From NCBI GenBank assembly GCA_046757165.1, contig JBHHXT010000005.1:1396-65395 (forward strand): a stretch of 64,000 nucleotides of DNA, read 5' to 3'. The notes under the pieces were generated by a model. That model saw only the letters and a list, made by a program, of their open reading frames with translations. It had not been told where the DNA came from and made no database searches. Below, piece by piece: positions 830 to 11,213 of the stretch; position 1 is the first letter of the stretch; each line of letters begins with the position of its first letter. The stretch comes from a bacterium. GTDB lineage: Bacteria; Zhuqueibacterota; Zhuqueibacteria; Oceanimicrobiales; Oceanimicrobiaceae. A program made the position numbers and the translations under genes.

Positions 830-2743
830 ATGATTCTCGATTCAAAGGTCCCGGATGGTTCACTGCAAGAAAAGTGGGACAAGCATAGATTCAACCTGAA
901 GCTGGTCAACCCGGCGAACAAGCGAAAATACACGGTCATTGTTGTGGGCACCGGGCTGGCCGGCGGGTCCGCAGCAGCGACGCTGGGAGAGCTGGGCTAC
1001 AACGTGCTGAACTTCTGCATCCAGGATTCTCCGCGCCGGGCGCACAGCATCGCAGCGCAGGGGGGCATCAACGCAGCCAAGAATTATCCCAACGACGGGG
1101 ACAGCATCTGGCGCCTCTTTTACGACACCGTCAAAGGGGGCGATTACCGCTCGCGTGAGGCGAATGTCTACCGGCTGGCGCAGATCAGCAACCATATCAT
1201 CGACCAGTGCGTGGCGCAAGGCGTGCCATTCGCGCGCGAGTACGGCGGTCTGCTGGACAACCGGTCGTTCGGCGGGGCACAGGTTTCGCGCACTTTCTAT
1301 GCTCGTGGGCAAACCGGCCAGCAGTTGCTGCTGGGCGCCTACAGCTCGCTCATGCGCCAGGTGGAGCAAGGAAGGGTGAAAATCTTCGCCCGCCATGAAA
1401 TGCTGGATCTGGTGGTGCAAAATGGCCATGCCCGCGGTATCGTGACCCGCAATCTTGTCAGCGGGGAAATCAGCTCTTTCGCCGCGGACGCCATCGTGCT
1501 GGCGACCGGCGGCTATGGCAACGTTTTTTACCTCTCCACCAACGCCAAAAACTCGAACGCGACTGCCGCCTGGCGCTGCCACAAACGCGGCGCGTTTTTC
1601 GCCAACCCTTGTTTCACGCAAATCCATCCGACCTGCATTCCGGTCTCCGGCGACTACCAGAGCAAGCTCACCTTGATGAGCGAAAGCTTGCGCAACGACG
1701 GCCGCGTCTGGGTGCCCAGGATGAAAGGCGACAAACGTGTGCCAGCGCAGGTTCCCGAAGAGGATCGGGATTACTACCTGGAAAGAAGATACCCGAGTTT
1801 CGGCAATCTCGTGCCGCGTGATGTGGCCTCCCGCAATGCCAAGGCGGTGTGTGACGAAGGGCGCGGCGTGGGCGAAACCGGGCTGGCGGTCTATCTGGAC
1901 TTCGCGGACGCCATCAAGCGTCTCGGCCAGCAGGCGATCAAAGACAAATATGGCAATCTGTTCGACATGTATGAGCGTATCACGGGCGAGAATCCCTACA
2001 AAGTGCCCATGCGCATCTATCCGGCCGTGCATTACACCATGGGCGGGCTCTGGGTCGACTACAACTTGATGAGTACCATACCGGGGCTGTTCGTGCTCGG
2101 CGAAGCCAACTTTTCCGACCACGGCGCGAATCGCCTCGGCGCGAGCGCGTTGATGCAGGGGCTGGCGGACGGCTATTTTGTCATTCCCTACACCATCGGC
2201 GACTACCTGGCCAACACCGGAGTCAATGGCACCGCGACAAGGGATAGCGAATTCAAGCAGGCAGAAGAGCAGGTGAAATCCGGAGTCGACAAATTCCTCG
2301 GCATCAGGGGCAAGAAAACCGTCACTGAATTCCACCGTGAGCTCGGGTTGCTCGTCTGGGAATATATCGGCATGGCGCGCAACAAAGCCAGCCTGAATAA
2401 GGCGCTAACGGAAATTCCAAAACTGAAGCAGCAATTCTGGAATGACCTGCTGATTCCAAATGACCCGAGTAATCTCAACAAGAATCTCGAATTCGCTGGC
2501 CGCGTGGCAGATTACTTTGAACTCGCTGAGCTGATGGCCAGAGATGCTTTGCAGCGCGAGGAATCATGTGGCGGCCACTTCCGGGAAGAGCACCAGACCG
2601 GCGAGGGCGAGGCCAGGCGTGACGACGACAACTTCTCCTGCGTTTCCGCCTGGGAGTACACGGGCGAAGGCAAGGACCCCACGCTCCACCAGGAGCCGCT
2701 GGTGTTCGAGAATGTGAAACTGACGCAGCGGAGTTACAAATAG
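830..2743 (+). CDS. sdhA: Succinate dehydrogenase/fumarate reductase flavoprotein subunit
   Basis: 637 aa. N-terminal FAD fold [27 protein letters not shown] motif carries the covalent-FAD His. C-terminal [11 protein letters not shown] matches the SdhA/FrdA active site. Confidence 0.95.
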
Positions 2744-2804
2744 ATGAGTTCAACTCAACTTTGAAATCTTGCAGAAGATCACGTCCCAGAGGAGAACTGT
2801 TTGA

Positions 2805-3563
2805 ATGGAAAGCATGACTTTGAACTTAGAAATCTGGCGTCAAAGAGATGCCAGCAGCTCTGGCAAGATGGTATCGTATAAACTCGAAAATGTTTCTCCA
2901 CACATGTCATTCCTGGAAATGCTCGATGTCTTGAACGAAAAACTGCTCAAAGAAAGGGCAGACCCGGTTGAATTTGACAACGACTGCCGCGAAGGCATTT
3001 GCGGCATGTGCAGCCTGGTCATCGACGGTGTGGCACACGGTCCCTGGAGAGGGACGGCCACCTGTCAACTGCACATGCGGCAATACAAAGATGGTGACAC
3101 CGTCGTCATCGAGCCGTGGCGCGCAAAAGCCTTCCCGGTGATCAAGGATCTGGTCGTGGACCGCACCGGGTTTGAACGTATCATTCAGGCCGGCGGCTAC
3201 ATTTCCATGAATGCCGGCGGGGCGCCGGACGCCAACGCGCTGCCGATTGCCAAAGAGATCGCTGACGAAGCGATGGACGCGGCCTCCTGCATCGGGTGCG
3301 GTGCGTGCGTCGCTGCCTGTCCCAACGCTTCCGCCTCGCTATTCACTGCCGCCAAGGTCTCACAATTCGCCCTTCTGCCGCAGGGGCAGCCGGAGCGCAA
3401 ACAGCGCGTTCTGCACATGGTCGAGCAGATGGACCGCGAGGGGTTTGGCGACTGCTCCAATCATGCGGAGTGCGAAGCAGTCTGCCCGAAGGAGATCTCG
3501 ATAGCGCACATTGCGCGCATGAAAAGGGAGTACCTCAAGGCCGCACTGACGGTAAGCGTTTGA
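2805..3563 (+). CDS. sdhB: Succinate dehydrogenase/fumarate reductase iron-sulfur subunit
   Basis: 252 aa with 2Fe-2S and 4Fe-4S/3Fe-4S cysteine clusters ([29 protein letters not shown]). True start may be the internal Met at about 2814. Confidence 0.9.
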
Positions 3564-3636
3564 ATCGATGATCGATAATCGATGATCGACGATTGAGGGG
3601 GGCGGCGCGGCGCTCTGTGCGTTGATTTTGGTTACA

Positions 3637-4485
3637 TTATTTGGTAAACAGCATCTTTCTTATCGCGACAAATCCGGCCGCTTTCAGACGGTACACATAG
3701 ATACCATTGGCAAGCACGATTCCGGCATTGTTTGTGCCGTCCCACCGAACGCTGTAGGTTCCGGCAGGCTGCCGGGCGTTCACCAGCGTTTTCGCCTCCT
3801 GGCCCAGCACGTTGAATATCTCCAGGCGTACGTCTGTCGAACTTACCGACTGCGGAATCGTATAGGTGATGACCGTGCTCGGGTTGAAGGGATTCGGATA
3901 ATTCTGCTCCAGACGAAAATCCGATGGTGTGCCGGCCGCCCCGCCCTCGACGCTGGTCAGGATGCCGTTTTCTGCACCAATGGTTGGGCTGGCCTGGTCA
4001 GCCCAATCGCTCGCTTCATTGCCCTCGCCGTCGTACTCGATGGAATGACCCTGGTCCACTGCGGGCACAAAAGCCCCGCGTGTCCAAAGACCGGCCCCAA
4101 CCGCCACACCTTCTCTTCCCTGCCCACCTGCTCCCCACTGGACGAAAGCCCTGATTGCTGAGGTGCTGGTAAAAACATCGGTGGCATACAATGCCAGATC
4201 GGCGCTGTTCAGAAGGCTCTTGCCCCTTAGCGCCAGAATACTCCCCGGTGCCATATTCGTCGAGCCGCTGACAATTGTCAATGCTCGTATCTGATCATAC
4301 TGGGAGGCAAGTGTACAAAGCCACCAGCCAGAAACGTCAACCGAGGTTGAACCAAAATTCTTCAATTCAATCCGGTCGTCTGAAGCGGATGCTGTATTGT
4401 AGAGAACTTCATTGATTCTCACCTGTGACATCAGCGCAGTAGGAATCAACAAAAACAGAGCGAGACACTGAATCAATTTATTCAT
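3637..4485 (-). CDS. Secreted protein with N-terminal lamin-tail-like domain and C-terminal T9SS sorting domain (Por_Secre_tail)
   Basis: Signal peptide MNKLIQCLALFLLIPTALMSQ. LTD-like segment INEVLYN...DRIELKN...VDVSGWWL. C-terminus LEQNYPNPFNPSTVITY...IFNVLGQEAKTL...GIYVYRL is the canonical T9SS CTD. Confidence 0.75.
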   Translation of the reverse strand: MNKLIQCLALFLLIPTALMSQVRINEVLYNTASASDDRIELKNFGSTSVDVSGWWLCTLASQYDQIRALTIVSGSTNMAPGSILALRGKSLLNSADLALYATDVFTSTSAIRAFVQWGAGGQGREGVAVGAGLWTRGAFVPAVDQGHSIEYDGEGNEASDWADQASPTIGAENGILTSVEGGAAGTPSDFRLEQNYPNPFNPSTVITYTIPQSVSSTDVRLEIFNVLGQEAKTLVNARQPAGTYSVRWDGTNNAGIVLANGIYVYRLKAAGFVAIRKMLFTK

Positions 4486-5142
4486 ACCAAAAGCCTCCTT
4501 TTGTTCGGTTTGTAGGATACAGATGACGCTGTTATCTATTTTACACCGACAGCTTTTTCTTGACTTTTCGACGGGTTCACGAATTCAGAATTAGGGTGTT
4601 CACGTTTTAGCGTGTTGTCCCCTCGCCCAGCAAGCTGAAGTTTGTGAACCGAACACGCCCTTTCAGGAATCGCTCAATTCAGAAAGAAACTCTTTTGGGT
4701 TCCGGCTCCTCGGCTCAGGAAGCAGAGACAAGCTTCTGAGGTCACTTGCTCTCAACTATAACTGACATTTTGCCCGAATAATTCCTGAGCCGGACAAGCC
4801 CCGCAGAAAGCGCGAGGGACTCACTCTATCAAGCGAAAAGATCCTTTTTTTCTGAATGAGTGCAATTTCGAAAACAACTGGGCTGGAATCAATCGAGTCC
4901 ACCGTAGGAGCATTGACATGTGTTGGCGCATACATATCCACAACGTCGCCTGCACAGAACCAGTAACGAATCTCGGCTTAAGCTCCATTTAACCGGTCCG
5001 AGTCGAAATGAAAGTTAGGCGTCTGGTTATTTTGTGGGGATCGAACCTACCAACATCCCGCAGACAAAAAACGAAAATACGCCTACCAATATTTTATGGT
5101 TCAGTTGTATAGCTCGGACAACGTCACAACACCAATTCCACG

Positions 5143-5338
5143 CTGCGCGGGGTTCGGTTGGTGGAATCGAATGGCCGCCACCAGCGTAGTTGCACGCACT
5201 GCTATAAACCCAGTTTTCCGGCATTTCGACAAAGCCTTCCCTGAGCGGGTCGTGGTGCAGGTAAACGCTGTCTGGCCATATCGAGTCCTGTCAAAAAGGT
5301 CTGACGCCTGGGGACTCATCTGTCCGGTTTGGGGGATG
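5143..5338. repeat. Direct repeat R0 copy 1 (about 196 bp), near-identical to 6454-6657
   Basis: Aligned by eye against copy 2: 1 SNP and 1 single-base indel over about 196 bp. Begins CTGCGCGGGGTTCGGTTGGTGGAATCGAATGGCCGCCACCA. Flanks differ on both sides. Confidence 0.9.
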
Positions 5339-5529
5339 CAATCGCCGATTCAAGTATGCGAAGGGGATTAGCGGGTGGGCTGAGCACGCGGGCGGAAATC
5401 CGCTTAGAGCATGACGTGTGTCGGGGTTCAATCCCGCGCTGTTTGCGGGACAGACGGACGCCCACTCCCCACACTGCGTCCACTGCCAACTCTTGAGTCG
5501 TTAGGTGCAGTTCTGACTATTTTCGTCAT

Positions 5530-6336
5530 CTACTCATTATTAATTATTGCCAAAGAATCTAACAAAGCTCTGCCGAATGGTACGATCTTGAATGTTTGAG
5601 GTTTTGAAATCGTGGTTTTTCCTAGCGTCTCGTCTCGGTATTCACACTCTACTACTCCAAATGTGTGCAGTATCGCGACAATCATCCGCTCAATCGAACC
5701 CTGTAATGCCATACCCGCAAATTGACTGTCTGGCGCACCCCATACTAACCCGGTTTTCTCGACCAATGCATCCGCGAATTCGTCTATTGGTATTTTCGTA
5801 CCTTGTCGTAATGAAAGCAATTCTTCAAGTGCATGGTAATTGAAGAACCGCGGCAATTCATCTCCCATTCCCGAATATGGATAGGCCACTATCCAATTCA
5901 CTTCATACCACCACACTGACAGCAAAAACGATACTTGATACAGTGGGTCAAGACTGAGAAATCTTTCTCCGTCTCGCGTTAGTCGCCAACGACGCGCTGG
6001 TGCGATGTCCACCAAAGCCCCCACTTCTGCTAAGATATGTAGAAAATACAACGACCATACATCTTCTTCACTTCGTAGTCGATATGTTCGACCTCCCAGT
6101 GTCCGATCTAATACTGGCGGTTCGATGAATCTTGCTGTTACCGCTCGTACCATTTTCAAAGGCATGTTCCCTGTGCTTTGAGTACCCACAACTTTGTTTT
6201 CTTTTACAAATTCCAGCAATGTGACCATATCTCGCCGCAAAGGTAAATCGCTGGCGGTTTTGATCATCTCGCCGGTGTGATAATGCTTCCTCCACACAGA
6301 TAATCGTTCTTCCAATTTCTCGCCTTTCTTTCTCAA
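5530..6336 (-). CDS. Hypothetical protein (orphan, no recognisable domain), sits between the R0 direct repeats
   Basis: 268-aa ORF in otherwise ORF-poor DNA with codon usage like its neighbours. I could recognise no integrase, transposase or reverse-transcriptase motifs. Confidence 0.5.
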   Translation of the reverse strand: MRKKGEKLEERLSVWRKHYHTGEMIKTASDLPLRRDMVTLLEFVKENKVVGTQSTGNMPLKMVRAVTARFIEPPVLDRTLGGRTYRLRSEEDVWSLYFLHILAEVGALVDIAPARRWRLTRDGERFLSLDPLYQVSFLLSVWWYEVNWIVAYPYSGMGDELPRFFNYHALEELLSLRQGTKIPIDEFADALVEKTGLVWGAPDSQFAGMALQGSIERMIVAILHTFGVVECEYRDETLGKTTISKPQTFKIVPFGRALLDSLAIINNE

Positions 6337-6453
6337 ATCTCAGTTTTTCCTGAGTTCAGTGCTGGACTAAGGCCCGCACCTAATCCGGATAGACGGGGCC
6401 TCGCGCCCCCGCTCCTGCAACACCATCGCTGAAAGCTTTCGGGAATCACATAC

Positions 6454-6657
6454 CCCTCGAACTGCGCGGGGTTCGGTTGGTGGAATCGAATGGCCGCCAC
6501 CAGCGTAGTTGCACGCACTGCTATAAACCCAGTTTTCCGGCATTTCGACAAAGCCTTCCCTGAGCGGGTCGTGGTGCAGGTAAACGCTGTCTGGCCATAT
6601 CGAGTCCTGTCAAAAAGGTCTGACGCCTGGGGACTCATCTGTCCCGTTTGGGGGGAT
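6454..6657. repeat. Direct repeat R0 copy 2
   Basis: Same sequence as 5143-5338. Similarity ends at GGGGGATG on the right. Confidence 0.9.
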
Positions 6658-6820
6658 GACCGGAGCTTTCGCACACGCCAGACGCCAGGGGACCGCACTT
6701 GTTTGCGACTGAAAATTGTTCTTTCGACTTTCCAACAAACTTTCTTTAGCCGCTTCACCATATTAAATTGTATGCACAATCTAGTTGACACTCGAGTTAT
6801 TTCTATGTATATTTAGGCCC

Positions 6821-7090
6821 ATGCAATATGAATGGGACGAAAACAAACGACTTGCCAATCTTGTCCGCCACAAGGTCGATTTTGCCGATACCATCGATTC
6901 CGAATGGGACACGGCTCTTGAAACTATTGACGATCGCTTTGATTACGGCGAAGAACGATGGGTAGCGCTTGGTTTTATCGGTAACAAGCTTCACGTGATG
7001 GTGTATATTTTTCGGGCCCCCAAAATCCGCATAATAAGTTTGCGTAAAGCGAATAAACGTGAGAGAATGTATTATGAAAAACAATCCTGA
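6821..7090 (+). CDS. brnT: BrnT-family ribonuclease toxin (DUF497) of a type II TA system
   Basis: MQYEWDENKRLANLVRHKVDFADT...WVALGFIGNKLHVMVYIFRAPKIRIISLRKANKRERMYY matches the BrnT signature (M.FEWD..K...N..KHGV.F...IRIISAR.A...E...Y). The tracked ORF starts at an upstream TTG; the ATG at 6821 is more likely. Confidence 0.8.
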   Translation: MQYEWDENKRLANLVRHKVDFADTIDSEWDTALETIDDRFDYGEERWVALGFIGNKLHVMVYIFRAPKIRIISLRKANKRERMYYEKQS

Positions 7091-7361
7091 ACATATTACA
7101 AAAGAAGATTGGGAGGGTGTTGAATCTCCACCGCTTTCCGACGAGATGCTGTCTCGGATGAAACCAGTAAAGGAAAGCCATCCTGACATTCCGAAGCGAG
7201 TTCGCGGACCCCAAAAAGATCCTCTGAAAGTGCCTGTTTCCATCCGACTAAGTCCAGATGTTGTAGAATATTTCAAGTCGCAGGGCAAGGGTTGGCAGAC
7301 CAAGATCAACAAAATCCTCCACGATTATATGAAAACTCATGGGGCTGATCTTAAGCGCTAA
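7074..7361 (+). CDS. brnA: BrnA-family antitoxin (RHH/CopG-like)
   Basis: Overlaps the brnT stop by 17 nt, the typical TA arrangement. C-terminal VPVSIRLSPDVVEYFKSQGKGWQTKINKILHDYM matches the BrnA motif (I.L..DV...FK..G.GYQTRIN..LR.Y). Confidence 0.75.
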   Translation: MKNNPEHITKEDWEGVESPPLSDEMLSRMKPVKESHPDIPKRVRGPQKDPLKVPVSIRLSPDVVEYFKSQGKGWQTKINKILHDYMKTHGADLKR

Positions 7362-7372
7362 CGTTACGGATT

Positions 7373-7609
7373 CTATGCATCGCTGAGCCGTGCTGTACCC
7401 TCTAGTTTCACGCGGAGAACGAAACTGGACCCTACAGAAAAATCAAGAACGTGACCGCTCCATGCTCGTGAGGATTTGCAGCCCGCGTGCTCGGCCTGCC
7501 CCTTAATCCGCCGCGCACCCTTCCCTTCCCCGAAGACCGGCACCCATTCAACAATCGTATGTGTAGTGAAATAGATGCCGTTGTCATCAACGATTCTGTA
7601 TCGAGCCAT
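7373..7609 (-). pseudogene. Possible truncated RAYT / IS200-like (Y1 HUH) transposase N-terminal fragment
   Basis: 78-aa ORF. MARYRIVDDNGIYFTTHTIVEWVPVF resembles the N-terminus of REP-associated tyrosine transposases (E. coli RayT: YRRYYIKGGTWFFTVNL), but the HUH and catalytic Tyr regions are absent. Confidence 0.3.
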
Positions 7610-7716
7610 CTGGAATCAAATCCAAGATAACAAGATGGCGCCGGATATAAAGTGTCCGATTGCTTTTATTCTCGATTTTGTTCTTTGATTTAATGGTTAA
7701 GACTGCTAGACTGACT

Positions 7717-7777
7717 GAATGAGAAGGCTCGTGTCGTGGGTTTCGAACCCGTCACGAAGTGTCTTCCTTCAGTCAGG
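7717..7777. repeat. REP-like compound palindrome: about 17-bp imperfect inverted arms enclosing a GGGTTTCGAACCC hairpin
   Basis: GACTGACTGAATGAGAAGG ... CGTGGGTTTCGAACCCGTCACG ... CTTCCTTCAGTCAGGTC, read directly from the sequence. Confidence 0.6.
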
Positions 7778-7828
7778 TCTAAAGTCCGTGAGAATAGTTA
7801 TAGAGATCCGACCTCATCTGTGAAGATA

Positions 7829-8866
7829 CTATCGCGCGCCTGATTGCTTGATCTTTCTGCTCACCTGCGCAAATCGAATCAGCAGGGTTTCAAGCTGTTT
7901 GCTGTACTCTTCGGGGGCAAGTTGGTCTTTTCTGGTCTTCAGCTCTTCGATTTGCTGCTGGAGCTGAAATTTTTCCAGTCTCAGTTTGTCCAGCGGAGAT
8001 TGGTCGCCGGTGCTCATTTTCTGCAAAGCAGCCTCCAGCTCTGGCGCCGCCGGACCCAGGTAGACACGGCTGGCCCACAGGCCATCTTTCGAGTCGTCGA
8101 ACTCCTGGCTGCCGACGCCATCACCGTTGTCGTCCAGCAGGGGGTGCTCAGCGCGCAAGCGCCGGTTTTCCTCGAACCAATCGTCCTGGCTGGTGCGCGC
8201 ATACGTGAACGCCTCGAGCAGACTGATGCGCTTGTCCTTGTTGCTATCGGCTGCCTCGTTGGCCAGCGCATCGAGGAAGAAATCTGCGAAGTTGGTCTCG
8301 AAGTACTGGGCGCCGCTTTTGGTGGCGGTCACCACCACCCGCTCTTTGGTACTGAGTCTCTTGATGAACGGCCCGCTGGCACTGCTGGTGTTGACGACGA
8401 TGATGCGCCGCGTGGGCAGGGTCGCCAGCATCTCTGCATAGTCGATATCCTTCAAGTCCGGGCCGACCAGGTTGAACTTGGCCCATTCGCCGTCAAAGGT
8501 GCCGTGGCCAATCAGGACCACCAGAAGCTGGTCCTCAGGGTGCATCTTCTTGCTGAGCTGTTCCATCGAGTTTCGAACATTTGCGCTGTTGGCCACGGCT
8601 GTGATTTTCAAGGAATCGTAAGCGAGATCCTCGAAAAGATAGATCAGATTCTGCTCTTTGTACCCGAGGCTGTCTGCCAGGAGATCGTACAACCGACGGG
8701 TTTGCTCGAAATATTTATCTGAGAATTCCTTCTGTCCGCCTGCGCCGCCAATGATCAGGGCATACCGTTCCCCCATCGCCTGAGACGATTGCGCAAATGC
8801 CGCAGAGACGACGAGCAGAAGCACATGCATTTTGATGAGCAACCCTGTCGATTTCATTCGCTCCAT
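7829..8866 (-). CDS. Secreted protein with legumain/caspase-like (C13-like) fold; Ser at predicted catalytic Cys position; C-terminal coiled coil
   Basis: Signal peptide. YALIIGGAGG ... LIGHGTFDG ... about 40 aa ... IIVVNTSSASG mirrors the C13 His-Gly ... hhhDAC.SG spacing with Cys replaced by Ser. Last gene of the Bat-like operon. Confidence 0.35.
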   Translation of the reverse strand: MERMKSTGLLIKMHVLLLVVSAAFAQSSQAMGERYALIIGGAGGQKEFSDKYFEQTRRLYDLLADSLGYKEQNLIYLFEDLAYDSLKITAVANSANVRNSMEQLSKKMHPEDQLLVVLIGHGTFDGEWAKFNLVGPDLKDIDYAEMLATLPTRRIIVVNTSSASGPFIKRLSTKERVVVTATKSGAQYFETNFADFFLDALANEAADSNKDKRISLLEAFTYARTSQDDWFEENRRLRAEHPLLDDNGDGVGSQEFDDSKDGLWASRVYLGPAAPELEAALQKMSTGDQSPLDKLRLEKFQLQQQIEELKTRKDQLAPEEYSKQLETLLIRFAQVSRKIKQSGAR

Positions 8867-8927: not shown

Positions 8928-11213
8928 CTAGGACAATCCTTTGCTCCGCCGCACATACCACTCGACGCACAAAATCACAATCACGAGCAGGAACCAGACT
9001 GGCATATCCCACAAATCGTACTCGACCAGTTTGGAATAGCTGCTCTGCATCACGGCGATTTCCGAGGGCAGATTTTGCGCCTCCTCCTGGTAGTAGTATT
9101 TGCCGCCACTGACTTCGGCAATCCTGCTCAAAAAAGCGGATTGCAGGTGGGCGTTGGAGAACTCTACTTTCGATTTTTCGACGAAAAATGCTGTCTCGCT
9201 CTTCCCCAGGAATTGTCCGCGTGCGGAAAAGGCGCTGATCTCGACGAGGTACATCCCCTCTTCGTCAGGGTGGTAGGTGCCCAGATGTTCCACTGTGCCA
9301 TTCGACGACCACCGGAAGGGGACCTCGACCTTCTCTCCGGACGGTTTGGTAATCCGCGCTTTGATGGTGGCATCAGGGATGGTGGTAAACGAGCTATCGC
9401 GCACATCGGCCTTTATGGTCACCTGCTCGTTCGGAATGTAGGTCGCATTGTCGGTGTGGGACTCGATCGGCTCCGGCGAAGAAAGGGCGAGCCAGCGCAG
9501 TACCTGCCGCCAGAAGCGCTCATGGCTCATATCCTGGTGCGGCATGCCCATTTGCCACAGCCACGAGCTGGAGGTGGCAAAAATCATCGAGCGTCCGCGC
9601 CCAAACCGTTGCTGGGCCAGAATAATTTTGGGATTGTCCGGTTCGCTCAGCGGATGGACCGCCAGGATGGTGGCCCCCGGCTTGGCCCGGCCGAGGGGAT
9701 TGTACCCTTCCAGCTCGGTCAATTCATCCCAGATGGCATGGTTCTGTGACTCGTCGGCGGAAAGCCGCAAGATGGGATTGCGATATCCTTCCGAGGTCAG
9801 CAGCAGCCTGTACTTATCGTGGAAGGTCGCCGGCGCCAGTGCGGTGCTGCCGTTTTGATAGGGCAGCTCCACGGGCAGCAGCTTCTCGATGACGGAATTC
9901 GTATAACCGCCCTGGGCAAAGGACTGGCTGCCGCCCAGCATCAGGAAGCCTCCGCCACGCTGAGAAACAAACGCCACCGTATTCTCGAGCTGTTCATCCT
10001 TGAAAAACTCTCGTTCCATACTGCCGAAAATGATGGCATCATACTCGAACAGCTCTGCCTTGGACAGGGGATAGCCGTCTTTCAGTTCTTGCTGGTTCTT
10101 GACTCCTTGCCGGTAGAATTTGTCCGGCCGTCCCGTTCGCAACAGCGACACGAGCTCAATACTTTCATCGCCGTCAAGTGCACGCCGGATGAACTTGAAC
10201 TCCGCGCGCGGATGGCCCTCGAGGTAAAGCACGCGCGCTTTCCTGCTGCGGTTATCGATGATAAAACTCTTGCTGTTGTTGTCTGTAATGAACTCATTTT
10301 CCCGTGCCACGACCTCGAGCGAGTACCGAACAAACCCCTGCTTTTGCGGCGAAAATTTGAGCGAAACGTGCGTCGCCGAGCCTTTCAACCGAACCGTTTG
10401 CTTTTTGAGCAGTCGGCCATCCTCCAGCAGCTCCAGCTCGACTTCCTGCTCAGCAAAGCTCTTGTTTTTGATCAGGGCCGACACCTCGACCACCGAATTC
10501 TCGATGACGGAATGGTTGGCTGCGACTTTCGCCAGCTCGATATCCCGTGTCTTCTCGCTGCCGACGCCGACCACAAACACGGGCAGATTCTTGTTCTTCA
10601 TCAACGCGGCAATTTCCAGGGGATCCTGGTCGCTGTGATTGACGCCGTCGGTCACCAGCACCACGCCAGACACAGCATTGTGCTTGCCGATTTCCGTGGC
10701 CAAATTCAAACTCTTCGCCAGGTCCGTGGCCTCCCCTTGCGCGGCAAGCTCACCGGTCTTTTGCAGGTGGTCCACCTCAGAAGCGAACCGGTATACCTGG
10801 AGCTTGAAATTCTTCTCGAGCTCATCCATCAAGCCAGGGCGTGCCTGCTCTCCGAGCAGATTCTGCACAAAGTCCTTGCGGCTGCGATTCCCCTTCACGT
10901 CTTTGATGGACATGCTCTTGGAGTCATCGACCAGCACGACCAGAGAACTCTTGCGAGGCATGACTTTGGACACGGTAACAATTGGCTCCAGAACGAGCAA
11001 GAGCAGCACCGCGATGGCCGTAAACTTCAGAGTGATCAACACCCATTTGAGAACCTGGCTGACCTCCAGAGTCGTCCTGCGGTACACCACCCACAAGCAC
11101 GTCGCAAACGCGCAGACCACAAAGGTCATGAACGCAGCAGAGGGCGTGAAGTTGAACGATATCGTGCCCTCAGAAAAAACAACCGGACTGTATTTGAACA
11201 AGAATTCAAACAT
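8928..11213 (-). CDS. Membrane protein with VWA domain and C-terminal class-I glutamine-amidotransferase-like domain (Bat-operon type)
   Basis: 761 aa with N-terminal TM helices. VWA MIDAS-like region LVVLVDDSKSMS. C-terminal region AIIFGSMEREFF...VSQRGGGFLMLGG is GATase1/ThuA-like. Ends in a TM anchor. Confidence 0.6.
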   Translation of the reverse strand: MFEFLFKYSPVVFSEGTISFNFTPSAAFMTFVVCAFATCLWVVYRRTTLEVSQVLKWVLITLKFTAIAVLLLLVLEPIVTVSKVMPRKSSLVVLVDDSKSMSIKDVKGNRSRKDFVQNLLGEQARPGLMDELEKNFKLQVYRFASEVDHLQKTGELAAQGEATDLAKSLNLATEIGKHNAVSGVVLVTDGVNHSDQDPLEIAALMKNKNLPVFVVGVGSEKTRDIELAKVAANHSVIENSVVEVSALIKNKSFAEQEVELELLEDGRLLKKQTVRLKGSATHVSLKFSPQKQGFVRYSLEVVARENEFITDNNSKSFIIDNRSRKARVLYLEGHPRAEFKFIRRALDGDESIELVSLLRTGRPDKFYRQGVKNQQELKDGYPLSKAELFEYDAIIFGSMEREFFKDEQLENTVAFVSQRGGGFLMLGGSQSFAQGGYTNSVIEKLLPVELPYQNGSTALAPATFHDKYRLLLTSEGYRNPILRLSADESQNHAIWDELTELEGYNPLGRAKPGATILAVHPLSEPDNPKIILAQQRFGRGRSMIFATSSSWLWQMGMPHQDMSHERFWRQVLRWLALSSPEPIESHTDNATYIPNEQVTIKADVRDSSFTTIPDATIKARITKPSGEKVEVPFRWSSNGTVEHLGTYHPDEEGMYLVEISAFSARGQFLGKSETAFFVEKSKVEFSNAHLQSAFLSRIAEVSGGKYYYQEEAQNLPSEIAVMQSSYSKLVEYDLWDMPVWFLLVIVILCVEWYVRRSKGLS

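Follow-up and report, generated by a model that had tools for sequence, protein, structure and literature searches.

A near-identical direct repeat pair around a predicted winged-helix gene appears to be duplicated DNA of a dead REP-associated transposase gene

Genes and features of the islet

The window (the whole stretch of DNA analysed here, 64 kb) contains an islet at 4486-7830 in which two copies of one segment, A1 and A2, lie in direct orientation around a gene for a 268-aa protein. Read along the minus strand, the islet consists of an N-terminal fragment of a RAYT (REP-associated tyrosine transposase) gene, a hairpin module (H2), the BrnA/BrnT genes in antisense with their own promoter, A2, 125 bp, the 268-aa gene, 90 bp, a second hairpin module (H1), and A1. 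The segment between the two copies is called X. RAYTs are domesticated tyrosine HUH transposases of the IS200-like type, with REP hairpins on either side; such REP/RAYT loci, with their flanking REP/REPIN hairpins, were reportedly described by Nunvar in 2010, Bertels and Rainey in 2011 and Ton-Hoang in 2012. The features are as follows.

5143-5338, minus strand: repeat copy A1, 196 bp; putative RAYT remnant, approximately residues 117-179 of 181; it starts with 'CATCCCCC', one half of the small hairpin that belongs to the upstream REP module
5339-5439, minus strand: H1, REP-like module consisting of a big hairpin and a small hairpin (GGCGATTG/CATCCCCC), in the orientation found upstream of a RAYT and continuous with A1
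5440-5529, minus strand: spacer of 90 bp from the stop codon of the 268-aa gene to H1
5530-6336, minus strand: 268-aa gene, intact, TTG start, GC 44.9%, predicted tandem winged-helix fold
6337-6461, minus strand: GC-rich spacer of 125 bp from A2 to the 268-aa gene
6462-6658, minus strand: repeat copy A2, 197 bp; the same putative RAYT remnant, severed from the REP module at 'CATCCCCCC' and adjoining the BrnT promoter region
6785-7361, plus strand: BrnTA type II toxin-antitoxin pair (BrnT 6821-7090, BrnA 7074-7361), GC 44.7%
7438-7517, plus strand: H2, second REP-like big hairpin, inverted with respect to H1 and directly next to codon 30 in the N-terminal fragment of the RAYT
7520-7609, minus strand: RAYT N-terminal fragment, residues 1-30 ('MARYRIVDDNGIYFTTHTIVEWVPVFGEGK'), 83% identical to the related protein P0121

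An earlier note, made from the sequence of this DNA, had described a direct pair of about 196 bp that differs by one SNP and one indel and has unrelated flanks. A repeat search, MAFFT and string matching all agree with this, and place the copies in direct orientation, 1319 bp apart from start to start. The coordinates given for the first copy were exact, while the second copy starts at 6462 and not at 6454. Identity is complete over the initial 183 bp (5143-5325 and 6462-6644); beyond this there is a single SNP (G at 5326, C at 6645) followed by a run of five versus six G, giving 195 identical columns out of 197. Both differences are therefore within the final 13 bp, beside the junction between A2 and the BrnT region. 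Similarity ends abruptly at either side, and the flanks are unrelated in the MAFFT alignment. A 71-mer of A occurs exactly twice in the 64-kb window, compared with no occurrences in 100 shuffles, in keeping with the proposal that this is a specific pair and not a multi-copy family. Folding found no significant structure in A, attC-like or other.

The adjacent toxin-antitoxin pair is clearly assigned. BrnT matches PF04365 (82.8 bits against a cutoff of 34.5, E=2e-23) and BrnA matches PF14384 (76.7 bits against 26.1, E=2e-21), so that two adjacent genes, overlapping by 17 bp, both score above their Pfam cutoffs; a putative sigma-70-like promoter at 6785-6813 has 11 of 12 matches. The GC contents of BrnTA (44.7%) and of the 268-aa gene (44.9%) are low compared with 54.2% for the window and 58% for the repeat, and both modules therefore look acquired. 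The suggestion that the islet is a mobile-DNA hotspot holding BrnTA and a transposase fragment is borne out, the fragment being the RAYT N-terminus. A tRNA or tmRNA integration target was also considered and set aside: ARAGORN identified none in the window, and Rfam none at E<=1 in 4000-8500. T-arm-like motifs seen by eye (around 5421-5437, 5034-5050 and 7735-7755) are unsupported by either program.

Junctions in independent read sets

Logan assemblies, which use k=31, contain matching contigs. Two of these, from other SRA runs (L001 and L002), are 1,196 bp long and identical to window positions 5296-6491, and a contig from a third assembly (L045) corresponds to 2994-5172. The contigs end either exactly 30 bp (k-1) inside the exact repeat or at the SNP. 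They confirm that the junctions of the left flank with A, of A (variant 1) with X, and of X with A are real in independent read sets, this being three of the four junctions. The k=31 graph is compatible with an integrated A-X-A, with a single-A chromosome plus a 1,319-bp circle, or with more tandem copies. Exact-protein look-ups retrieved no Logan contig that crosses an entire copy of A; those for BrnT, BrnA, a C13-like protein, junction-spanning ORFs and the SdhA of the source genome gave no entry at all. A tiny circular element was considered as the source of the 1,196-bp contigs and rejected, their length being explained by k-mer breaks at the repeat; similarly, the occurrence of homologs of the 268-aa protein on contigs of about 1 kb is matched by the median contig of that collection, which is also about 1 kb.

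The earlier note had recommended looking for an empty site by BLASTN. A degenerate-pattern scan of metagenomes, a check of this type, gave 0 matches to an empty or single-copy site, and none was seen in any collection; the source organism is itself absent from those collections.

Identity of the repeat

Translation of a repeat before it is interpreted can settle what it is, and this is the case here. The minus-strand translation of either copy is '...ESPGVRPF*QDSIWPDSVYLHHDPLREGFVEMPENWVYSSACNYAGGGHSIPPTEPRA'. A query made by joining the translation of A to the nearby fragment 7609-7505 retrieved the relatives P0121-P0123, and a metagenome scan retrieved 12 loci (L051-L062) that code for a 181-aa protein with the HUH motif HFHL and a C-terminus of the form 'YMHNNP..GFV.KPE.WLYSSARNY'. 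One of these intact relatives (L051, 181 aa) scores 101.3 bits (E=4e-29) against NF047646, the NCBIfam equivalog for REP-associated tyrosine transposases, which has a cutoff of 80 bits. The intact relative falls below the IS200 thresholds, at 22.2 versus 23 for Pfam Y1_Tnp (PF01797) and 14.6 versus 55 for NF033573. In tblastn, A matches P0121 and the L051 RAYT over residues 140-176 (E ~4e-8); as a C-terminal fragment it is 48% identical to the RAYT relatives. Against NF047646 itself the window C-terminal fragment gives a weak match of 16.9 bits (E=0.004). Repeat A thus reads as the C-terminal ~55 codons of a RAYT. Homology to RAYT extends to residue 176, which is 10 nt short of the left edge of A, and the 3' end of A lies within about 2 codons of the RAYT stop, where the right-end REP starts in intact elements.

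Both copies have a TGG to TGA stop ('RPF*QD') and a 6-codon gap compared with intact relatives. The N-terminal fragment is better preserved, being 80% identical to the L051 RAYT (E=4e-13). RAYT residues ~31-116, which include the HUH core with HFHL, are missing from the islet, and no intact RAYT is present within the 64-kb window. Judged from its sequence, the RAYT of the window is a non-functional pseudogene, which does not have the intact HUH motif and catalytic tyrosine expected of an active enzyme.

The lesions that A1 and A2 share are informative. Since the same stop and the same deletion occur in both, the duplication postdates the death of the RAYT. They also exclude that an active element was inserted twice independently, and that an att duplication restored the 3' end of the gene.

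REP-like hairpin modules

Upstream of their RAYT gene the relatives have a conserved module, 'CGCTCGCAGGGGATTT...AATCCCCTGCG', which a small hairpin, 'GGGATTGCATCCCC', follows; an inverted copy of the module is found 3' of the RAYT, beginning at the stop codon. Inverted flanking modules are present in four of the loci (L051-L054) and solitary modules in three (L055, L056 and L059). Profiles were built from L051-L062 and searched against the window with nhmmer. The profile for the RAYT-upstream module matches H1 on the minus strand from 5412 to 5320 (E=1.6e-13), and the right-end module profile matches H1 on the opposite strand at 5329-5439 (E=1.2e-6). H2 gives a match at 7438-7515 on the plus strand with E=2.6e-7 and is ~75% similar to H1 by alignment. 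The REP-module profiles match in two places only in the 64 kb, these being H1 and H2.

The sequence 'CATCCCCC', with which the repeat ends on the right, forms the latter half of H1's small hairpin, and the edge of A2 cuts through this small hairpin. On its 5' side A1 is in the canonical context of a RAYT, and A2 is not. The repeat had been held not to be a MITE or IS end, and as an internal RAYT fragment it is indeed neither; the accompanying statement that no inverted terminal structure is present, however, overlooked the REP-like hairpins at 5339-5439 and 7438-7517, which belong to the same decayed element. A degenerate right-end REP that could be seen by eye after A1 or A2 was rejected, having no nhmmer match at E<=100 when the islet alone was searched and p=0.51 and 0.10 in Smith-Waterman comparisons with shuffles.

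The 268-aa protein and its family

The enclosed ORF (5530-6336, minus) is intact and, as had been noted, carries no recombinase, transposase or RT motif. Structure prediction, which had been proposed as a check, gives a tandem winged helix and no recombinase fold. The protein has no match in Pfam, NCBIfam, PADLOC or PHROG and shows no domain typical of a recombinase, integrase or transposase; a comparison with PDB sequences gave nothing, and a fold search gave no Rep-like match. It was assigned to no defence system and no phage family.

The gene had been called an orphan, which it is not. It has at least 480 homologs at E<=1e-3, which are 40-74% identical and come from Chloroflexota, KSB1, Calditrichota and other phyla; the best 120 of these at least 480 homologs are 53-100% identical. 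There are 42 family loci in GTDB species representatives, mostly in Anaerolineae, with the others in KSB1, Calditrichota, Planctomycetota, Acidobacteriota and Gemmatimonadota. The family alignment has approximately 50 invariant positions. PF27146 is listed for some homologs.

No conserved neighbours were found across 43 loci, and DNA similarity between the window and homolog loci is limited to the coding sequence. The 6337-6461 spacer contains no detectable REP module and has no similarity to other loci. No member of the family turned up on sequenced plasmids, in phages or among IMG/VR contigs. Low GC, a patchy spread across phyla and variable neighbours together indicate that the 268-aa gene moves horizontally. 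Toxin-antitoxin modules are found near some homologs, these being PhdYefM-ParE at L006, and VapBC and HicB at L048. Among the 42 loci, flanking repeats are found only at L006 (direct) and L039 (inverted). At L006 there are three repeats around PhdYefM-ParE and the 268-aa homolog, which show no relation to either A or the REP module. The L006 arrangement prompted an integron/attC reading, which was rejected: when both strands of A and of the L006 repeats were folded as DNA, the z-scores ranged from -0.59 to +0.68.

The predicted tandem winged-helix family is large, conserved and uncharacterised, crosses phyla without a fixed partner, and tends toward toxin-antitoxin modules and dead mobile elements.

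Adjacency of the 268-aa gene, the REP module and RAYT

The REP module was found at one of 46 other family loci (441 kb in all), namely L037, from a divergent KSB1 genome. Its homolog is 42% identical to the window protein, and its REP module lies 15-36 bp past the homolog stop codon, with strand and orientation as in the window. Five bases after the module, 'ATGGGCCGGTACCGGATCGTGGAAGAAGGC' (MGRYRIVEEG) is the start of a RAYT, truncated after ~10 codons. As a rough estimate, the chance expectation of such a placement would be ~0.005. The SdhA of the window genome is ~86% identical to KSB1/Calditrichota proteins, which places the L037 and window genomes in the same broad lineage. In the other direction, none of the 12 RAYT loci (L051-L062) has a 268-aa homolog upstream of the RAYT. 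The adjacency is thus specific but rare. Because the order recurs in L037, X followed by A1 is plausibly the native arrangement, with A2 as the extra copy. We note also that a truncated transposase of the IS3 type lies immediately upstream of the L037 gene.

One might go further and propose that the 268-aa protein, the hairpin and RAYT form an undescribed composite unit, in which the winged-helix protein would be a hairpin-binding partner, RAYT 3' remnants would be homology landing pads, and the 1,319-bp A+X would be an excisable circle hopping between RAYT loci. We regard this as a long shot. If the adjacency proved general, the protein would be a candidate partner for RAYT/REP, a field in which the host function of RAYT is still open. 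The parts worth following are the winged-helix family and its occasional siting directly upstream of the REP hairpin of a RAYT, and only these.

Origin of the repeat pair

We favour, at a probability of about one half, the reading that A-X-A arose by local, enzyme-independent duplication of dead RAYT DNA in a REP/RAYT graveyard that also acquired BrnTA. The islet at 4486-7830 would then be the remains of a REP/RAYT locus whose RAYT is dead and in pieces, namely its first 30 codons, fused to an inverted REP, and a REP followed by the truncated C-terminal remnant A; low-GC acquired modules, BrnTA and the 268-aa gene, would lie among the pieces. After the stop and the internal deletion had arisen, A1 would have been copied ~1.3 kb away, across the 268-aa gene, to give A2. 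The copying would be a local replication or recombination error in which the repeat was passive. It may have gone by tandem duplication of the 1,319-bp [A+X], the distal X then being lost and one of the breakpoints falling in the small REP hairpin, or in one step as a templated insertion by template switching. The latter would explain why both mismatches are no more than 13 bp from one junction. The clustering of the mismatches fits error-prone repair synthesis, and could equally be a result of gene conversion of the interior. The earlier suggestion of a very recent partial duplication thus remains the best reading, in view of the shared lesions and of the native context of A1.

The anatomy of the islet, the lesions and the context of A1 are observed directly. 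We infer in what order the events took place, in which direction the duplication went and by what mechanism, since neither an ancestor with a single copy nor an empty site turned up in any collection. Several points can be held against a local duplication: integration of a circle by single crossover gives the same A-X-A; the tandem route requires a second event, and there is no clear microhomology at the junctions; the sharp, identical ends could suit a defined mobile unit; and a random breakpoint leaves unexplained why A ends within ~2 codons of the RAYT stop.

A Campbell-type origin would have a circle of 1,319 bp, with A, the 268-aa gene and the REP module on it, entering a chromosomal RAYT remnant beside BrnTA by RecA crossover, from which it could be excised again. 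A2-X-A1 is exactly what such a single crossover produces, the 183 identical bp give RecA ample homology, and the de Bruijn graph of the independent runs suits an integrated or a circular A+X. The low GC, patchy cross-phylum distribution and variable neighbours of the 268-aa gene are in keeping with it, as is the L006 homolog, which likewise lies between direct repeats beside a toxin-antitoxin cassette, although those repeats are of unrelated sequence. However, the donor and recipient copies of A need the same post-mortem lesions and hence a prior common dead ancestor, and for the circle to form there must already have been an A-X-A or a sister allele. The circle, the empty site and a second context were all absent from the collections searched. 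On balance we consider this origin unlikely. It is less likely still that the arrangement is an assembly ambiguity, in which a single-A chromosome and a separate 1.3-kb circular or tandem A+X, or a wrong copy number of X, were threaded as A-X-A. All of the k=31 Logan contigs do break at the repeat, the Eulerian paths are equal for both layouts, and an independent contig through a whole copy is not on record. Nevertheless the SNP and indel variants are tied to different flanks, with variant 1 joined to X in two runs; the 68-kb source contig crosses the 183-bp exact repeat, which implies that read pairs or longer k-mers or reads resolved it; and a 1.3-kb replicon with neither a replication gene nor a Rep-like fold match is implausible.

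The repeat could also have been moved by an enzyme. An intact RAYT elsewhere may have acted in trans, cutting near REP hairpins and moving A or the 268-aa segment as ssDNA. The ends of A are at REP landmarks, the small hairpin at 5' and a point within ~2 codons of the RAYT stop at 3'. The contigs of the relatives often end within the gene, and there are solitary modules, which suggests activity of the family. A, however, is without either big hairpin, neither copy is followed by a right-end module, and the 64-kb window has no intact RAYT. To our knowledge, duplication of hairpin-less internal segments is not part of IS200/RAYT chemistry, and we consider action in trans very doubtful. The proposal in the earlier note that the copies are attL/attR boundaries, here of an integrase-driven islet carrying the 268-aa gene, has the least to recommend it and is scarcely credible. 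Sharp direct repeats from the 3' end of a gene do superficially resemble 3'-end integration. But no integrase or recombinase is present in or beside the unit, whose neighbours are BrnTA and RAYT fragments; A1 is beside its own REP hairpin; the 'target gene' was already dead and is unrestored, both copies carrying the same stop; and such repeats are missing from 45 of the 46 other homolog loci, while the family as a whole has no conserved recombinase neighbour. The case shows that a lone gene between long, perfect direct repeats can look as if it had att sites when the repeats are duplicated pseudogene DNA. There is no sign that the 1,319-bp unit has a mobility function of its own. RecA recombination between A1 and A2 could, as a possible consequence, release a 1,319-bp circle bearing the 268-aa gene.

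Comparison with known systems

The locus is a new instance of known things, these being a REP/RAYT locus in decay, the duplication of a segment, a toxin-antitoxin module and a horizontally moving gene. The REP/RAYT layout of a gene with inverted hairpins has been reviewed (PMC5581495, PMC3337134), and RAYTs disperse REPINs (PMC5581495). The intact relatives pass the RAYT model and have inverted flanking modules, with solitary ones nearby, and the window keeps two modules beside its gene fragments. The locus differs in that the RAYT of the window appears to be dead and fragmented with its HUH core gone, and in that part of it is duplicated around a cargo gene. The modules are also larger, at ~80-100 nt (big plus small hairpin) compared with 20-40 nt for classic REPs, and there are two per 64 kb. 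With IS200/IS605 elements the locus shares the Y1 HUH superfamily, subterminal hairpins in place of terminal inverted repeats, and the lack of a target-site duplication, but the relatives are below the thresholds for these elements, and the 196-bp repeat is an internal fragment and not an element end.

The products of tandem duplication or Campbell integration are similar in their long near-perfect direct repeats, sharp ends, absence of a recombinase and potential for loop-out by RecA. They differ in that only 1.15 units are present here, which calls for a second event or a templated insertion, and in that one breakpoint is in a hairpin. Integron or CALIN-like arrays likewise have single-gene modules and toxin-antitoxin pairs between repeats, as do the window and L006; however, there is no attC-like folding, neither R''/R' boxes nor IntI were identified, and the repeat in the window is derived from coding sequence. 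Finally, the window protein has no PF07929 (pRiA4_Orf3-like) domain, whereas in at least five homologs this domain is fused to the 268-aa module, with E down to 1e-72; pRiA4_Orf3-like proteins are carried by Mutator-like transposons of the ISAzba1 group (PMC3942029).

The 268-aa gene beside REP-like hairpins and a RAYT start

The association of the 268-aa gene with a REP-like hairpin module is also seen in L037, a locus from the KSB1 MAG JAJDAF010000023.1. Here a homolog with 42% identity (6046-6880) is followed, within ~36 bp downstream, by the REP-like hairpin module also present in the window, and this in turn by the start codon and ~10 codons (MGRYRIVEEG) of a RAYT (REP-associated tyrosine transposase) gene. 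The order from homolog to module to RAYT start, and the orientation, match those in the window. On its upstream side, the L037 homolog is adjoined by a truncated IS3-type transposase, with HTH_Tnp_1 and HTH_21 domains and without the catalytic domain.

Possible multi-copy state or disruption of RAYT relatives

In the metagenome loci carrying relatives of the window RAYT, many contigs end within the gene (L055, L056, L059, L060 and L062), and N-terminal fragments cut at varying codons (~21, 45, 65) are found internally in L057, L058 and L061. These contig ends, together with the differing lengths of the fragments, suggest that the window-type RAYT family is multi-copy or often disrupted in those communities. 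RAYTs are described as single-copy, and either property would therefore be unusual for them.

A different RAYT-like ORF ('YIHFNPQKHGFVSDFREWPWSS', ~9330-9650) was noted in L019, ~2.5 kb away from the 268-aa homolog of that locus. It lies among three REP-like palindromes of 33-34 bp (9131-9839):
9131-9164, palindrome
9397-9429, palindrome
9806-9839, palindrome

Islet borders and promoters

The islet and its neighbours in the window are arranged as follows:
830-3563, SdhA and SdhB, just upstream
3637-4485, border gene, protein with a lamin-tail domain and, at the C terminus, a T9SS/FlgD-Ig type sorting domain
4486-5142, AT-rich, ORF-poor spacer (42-47% GC)
7610-7828, AT-rich, ORF-poor spacer (42-47% GC)
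7829-8866, border gene, peptidase-C13-like protein

SdhA places the organism near KSB1/Calditrichota. The two spacers, which flank the islet, share no similarity with the rest of the window or with the fetched loci. Close to both islet ends there is a weak inverted match of 16 nt (4563-4578 and 7745-7760), probably due to chance. Short motifs resembling a tRNA T-arm (e.g. GGGGTTCAATCCC), at 5421-5437, 5034-5050 and 7735-7755, were rejected, as ARAGORN and Rfam gave no tRNA or fragment.

At 6785-6813, brnT is preceded, at a distance of 8 bp, by a near-consensus sigma-70-type promoter (TTGACA-17-TATATT, 11/12). The 268-aa gene has no promoter-like site comparable to this one upstream on its own strand.

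Fusions and neighbours of the 268-aa family

In five Anaerolineae/Chloroflexota MAGs (L024, L031, L038, L040 and L044) the 268-aa module forms the C-terminal half of 466-617-aa proteins, the N-terminal half being a PRiA4_ORF3 (PF07929, MM3350-like) domain. The placement is reversed in the database protein P0098, where the PF07929 match is C-terminal. TPR repeats are fused to the module in L009 and P0093.

In the Calditrichota MAG JAADIP010000169.1 (L006:1-2010), a PhdYefM-ParE toxin-antitoxin pair and a 268-aa-family gene are set apart by three direct repeats of 100-170 bp (63-86% identity):
1-106, repeat copy
793-960, repeat copy
1854-2007, repeat copy

None of these repeats folds as an attC site, nor are they related to the window repeat or REP module. 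The layout resembles a cassette array.

VapBC and HicB modules lie <4 kb from the homolog in L048. In L047 (643-4506), a close homolog (74% identity) lies just downstream of two genes, one HATPase_c_3/HSP90-like (897 aa) and one unannotated (372 aa), and this pairing recalls defence-type operons.
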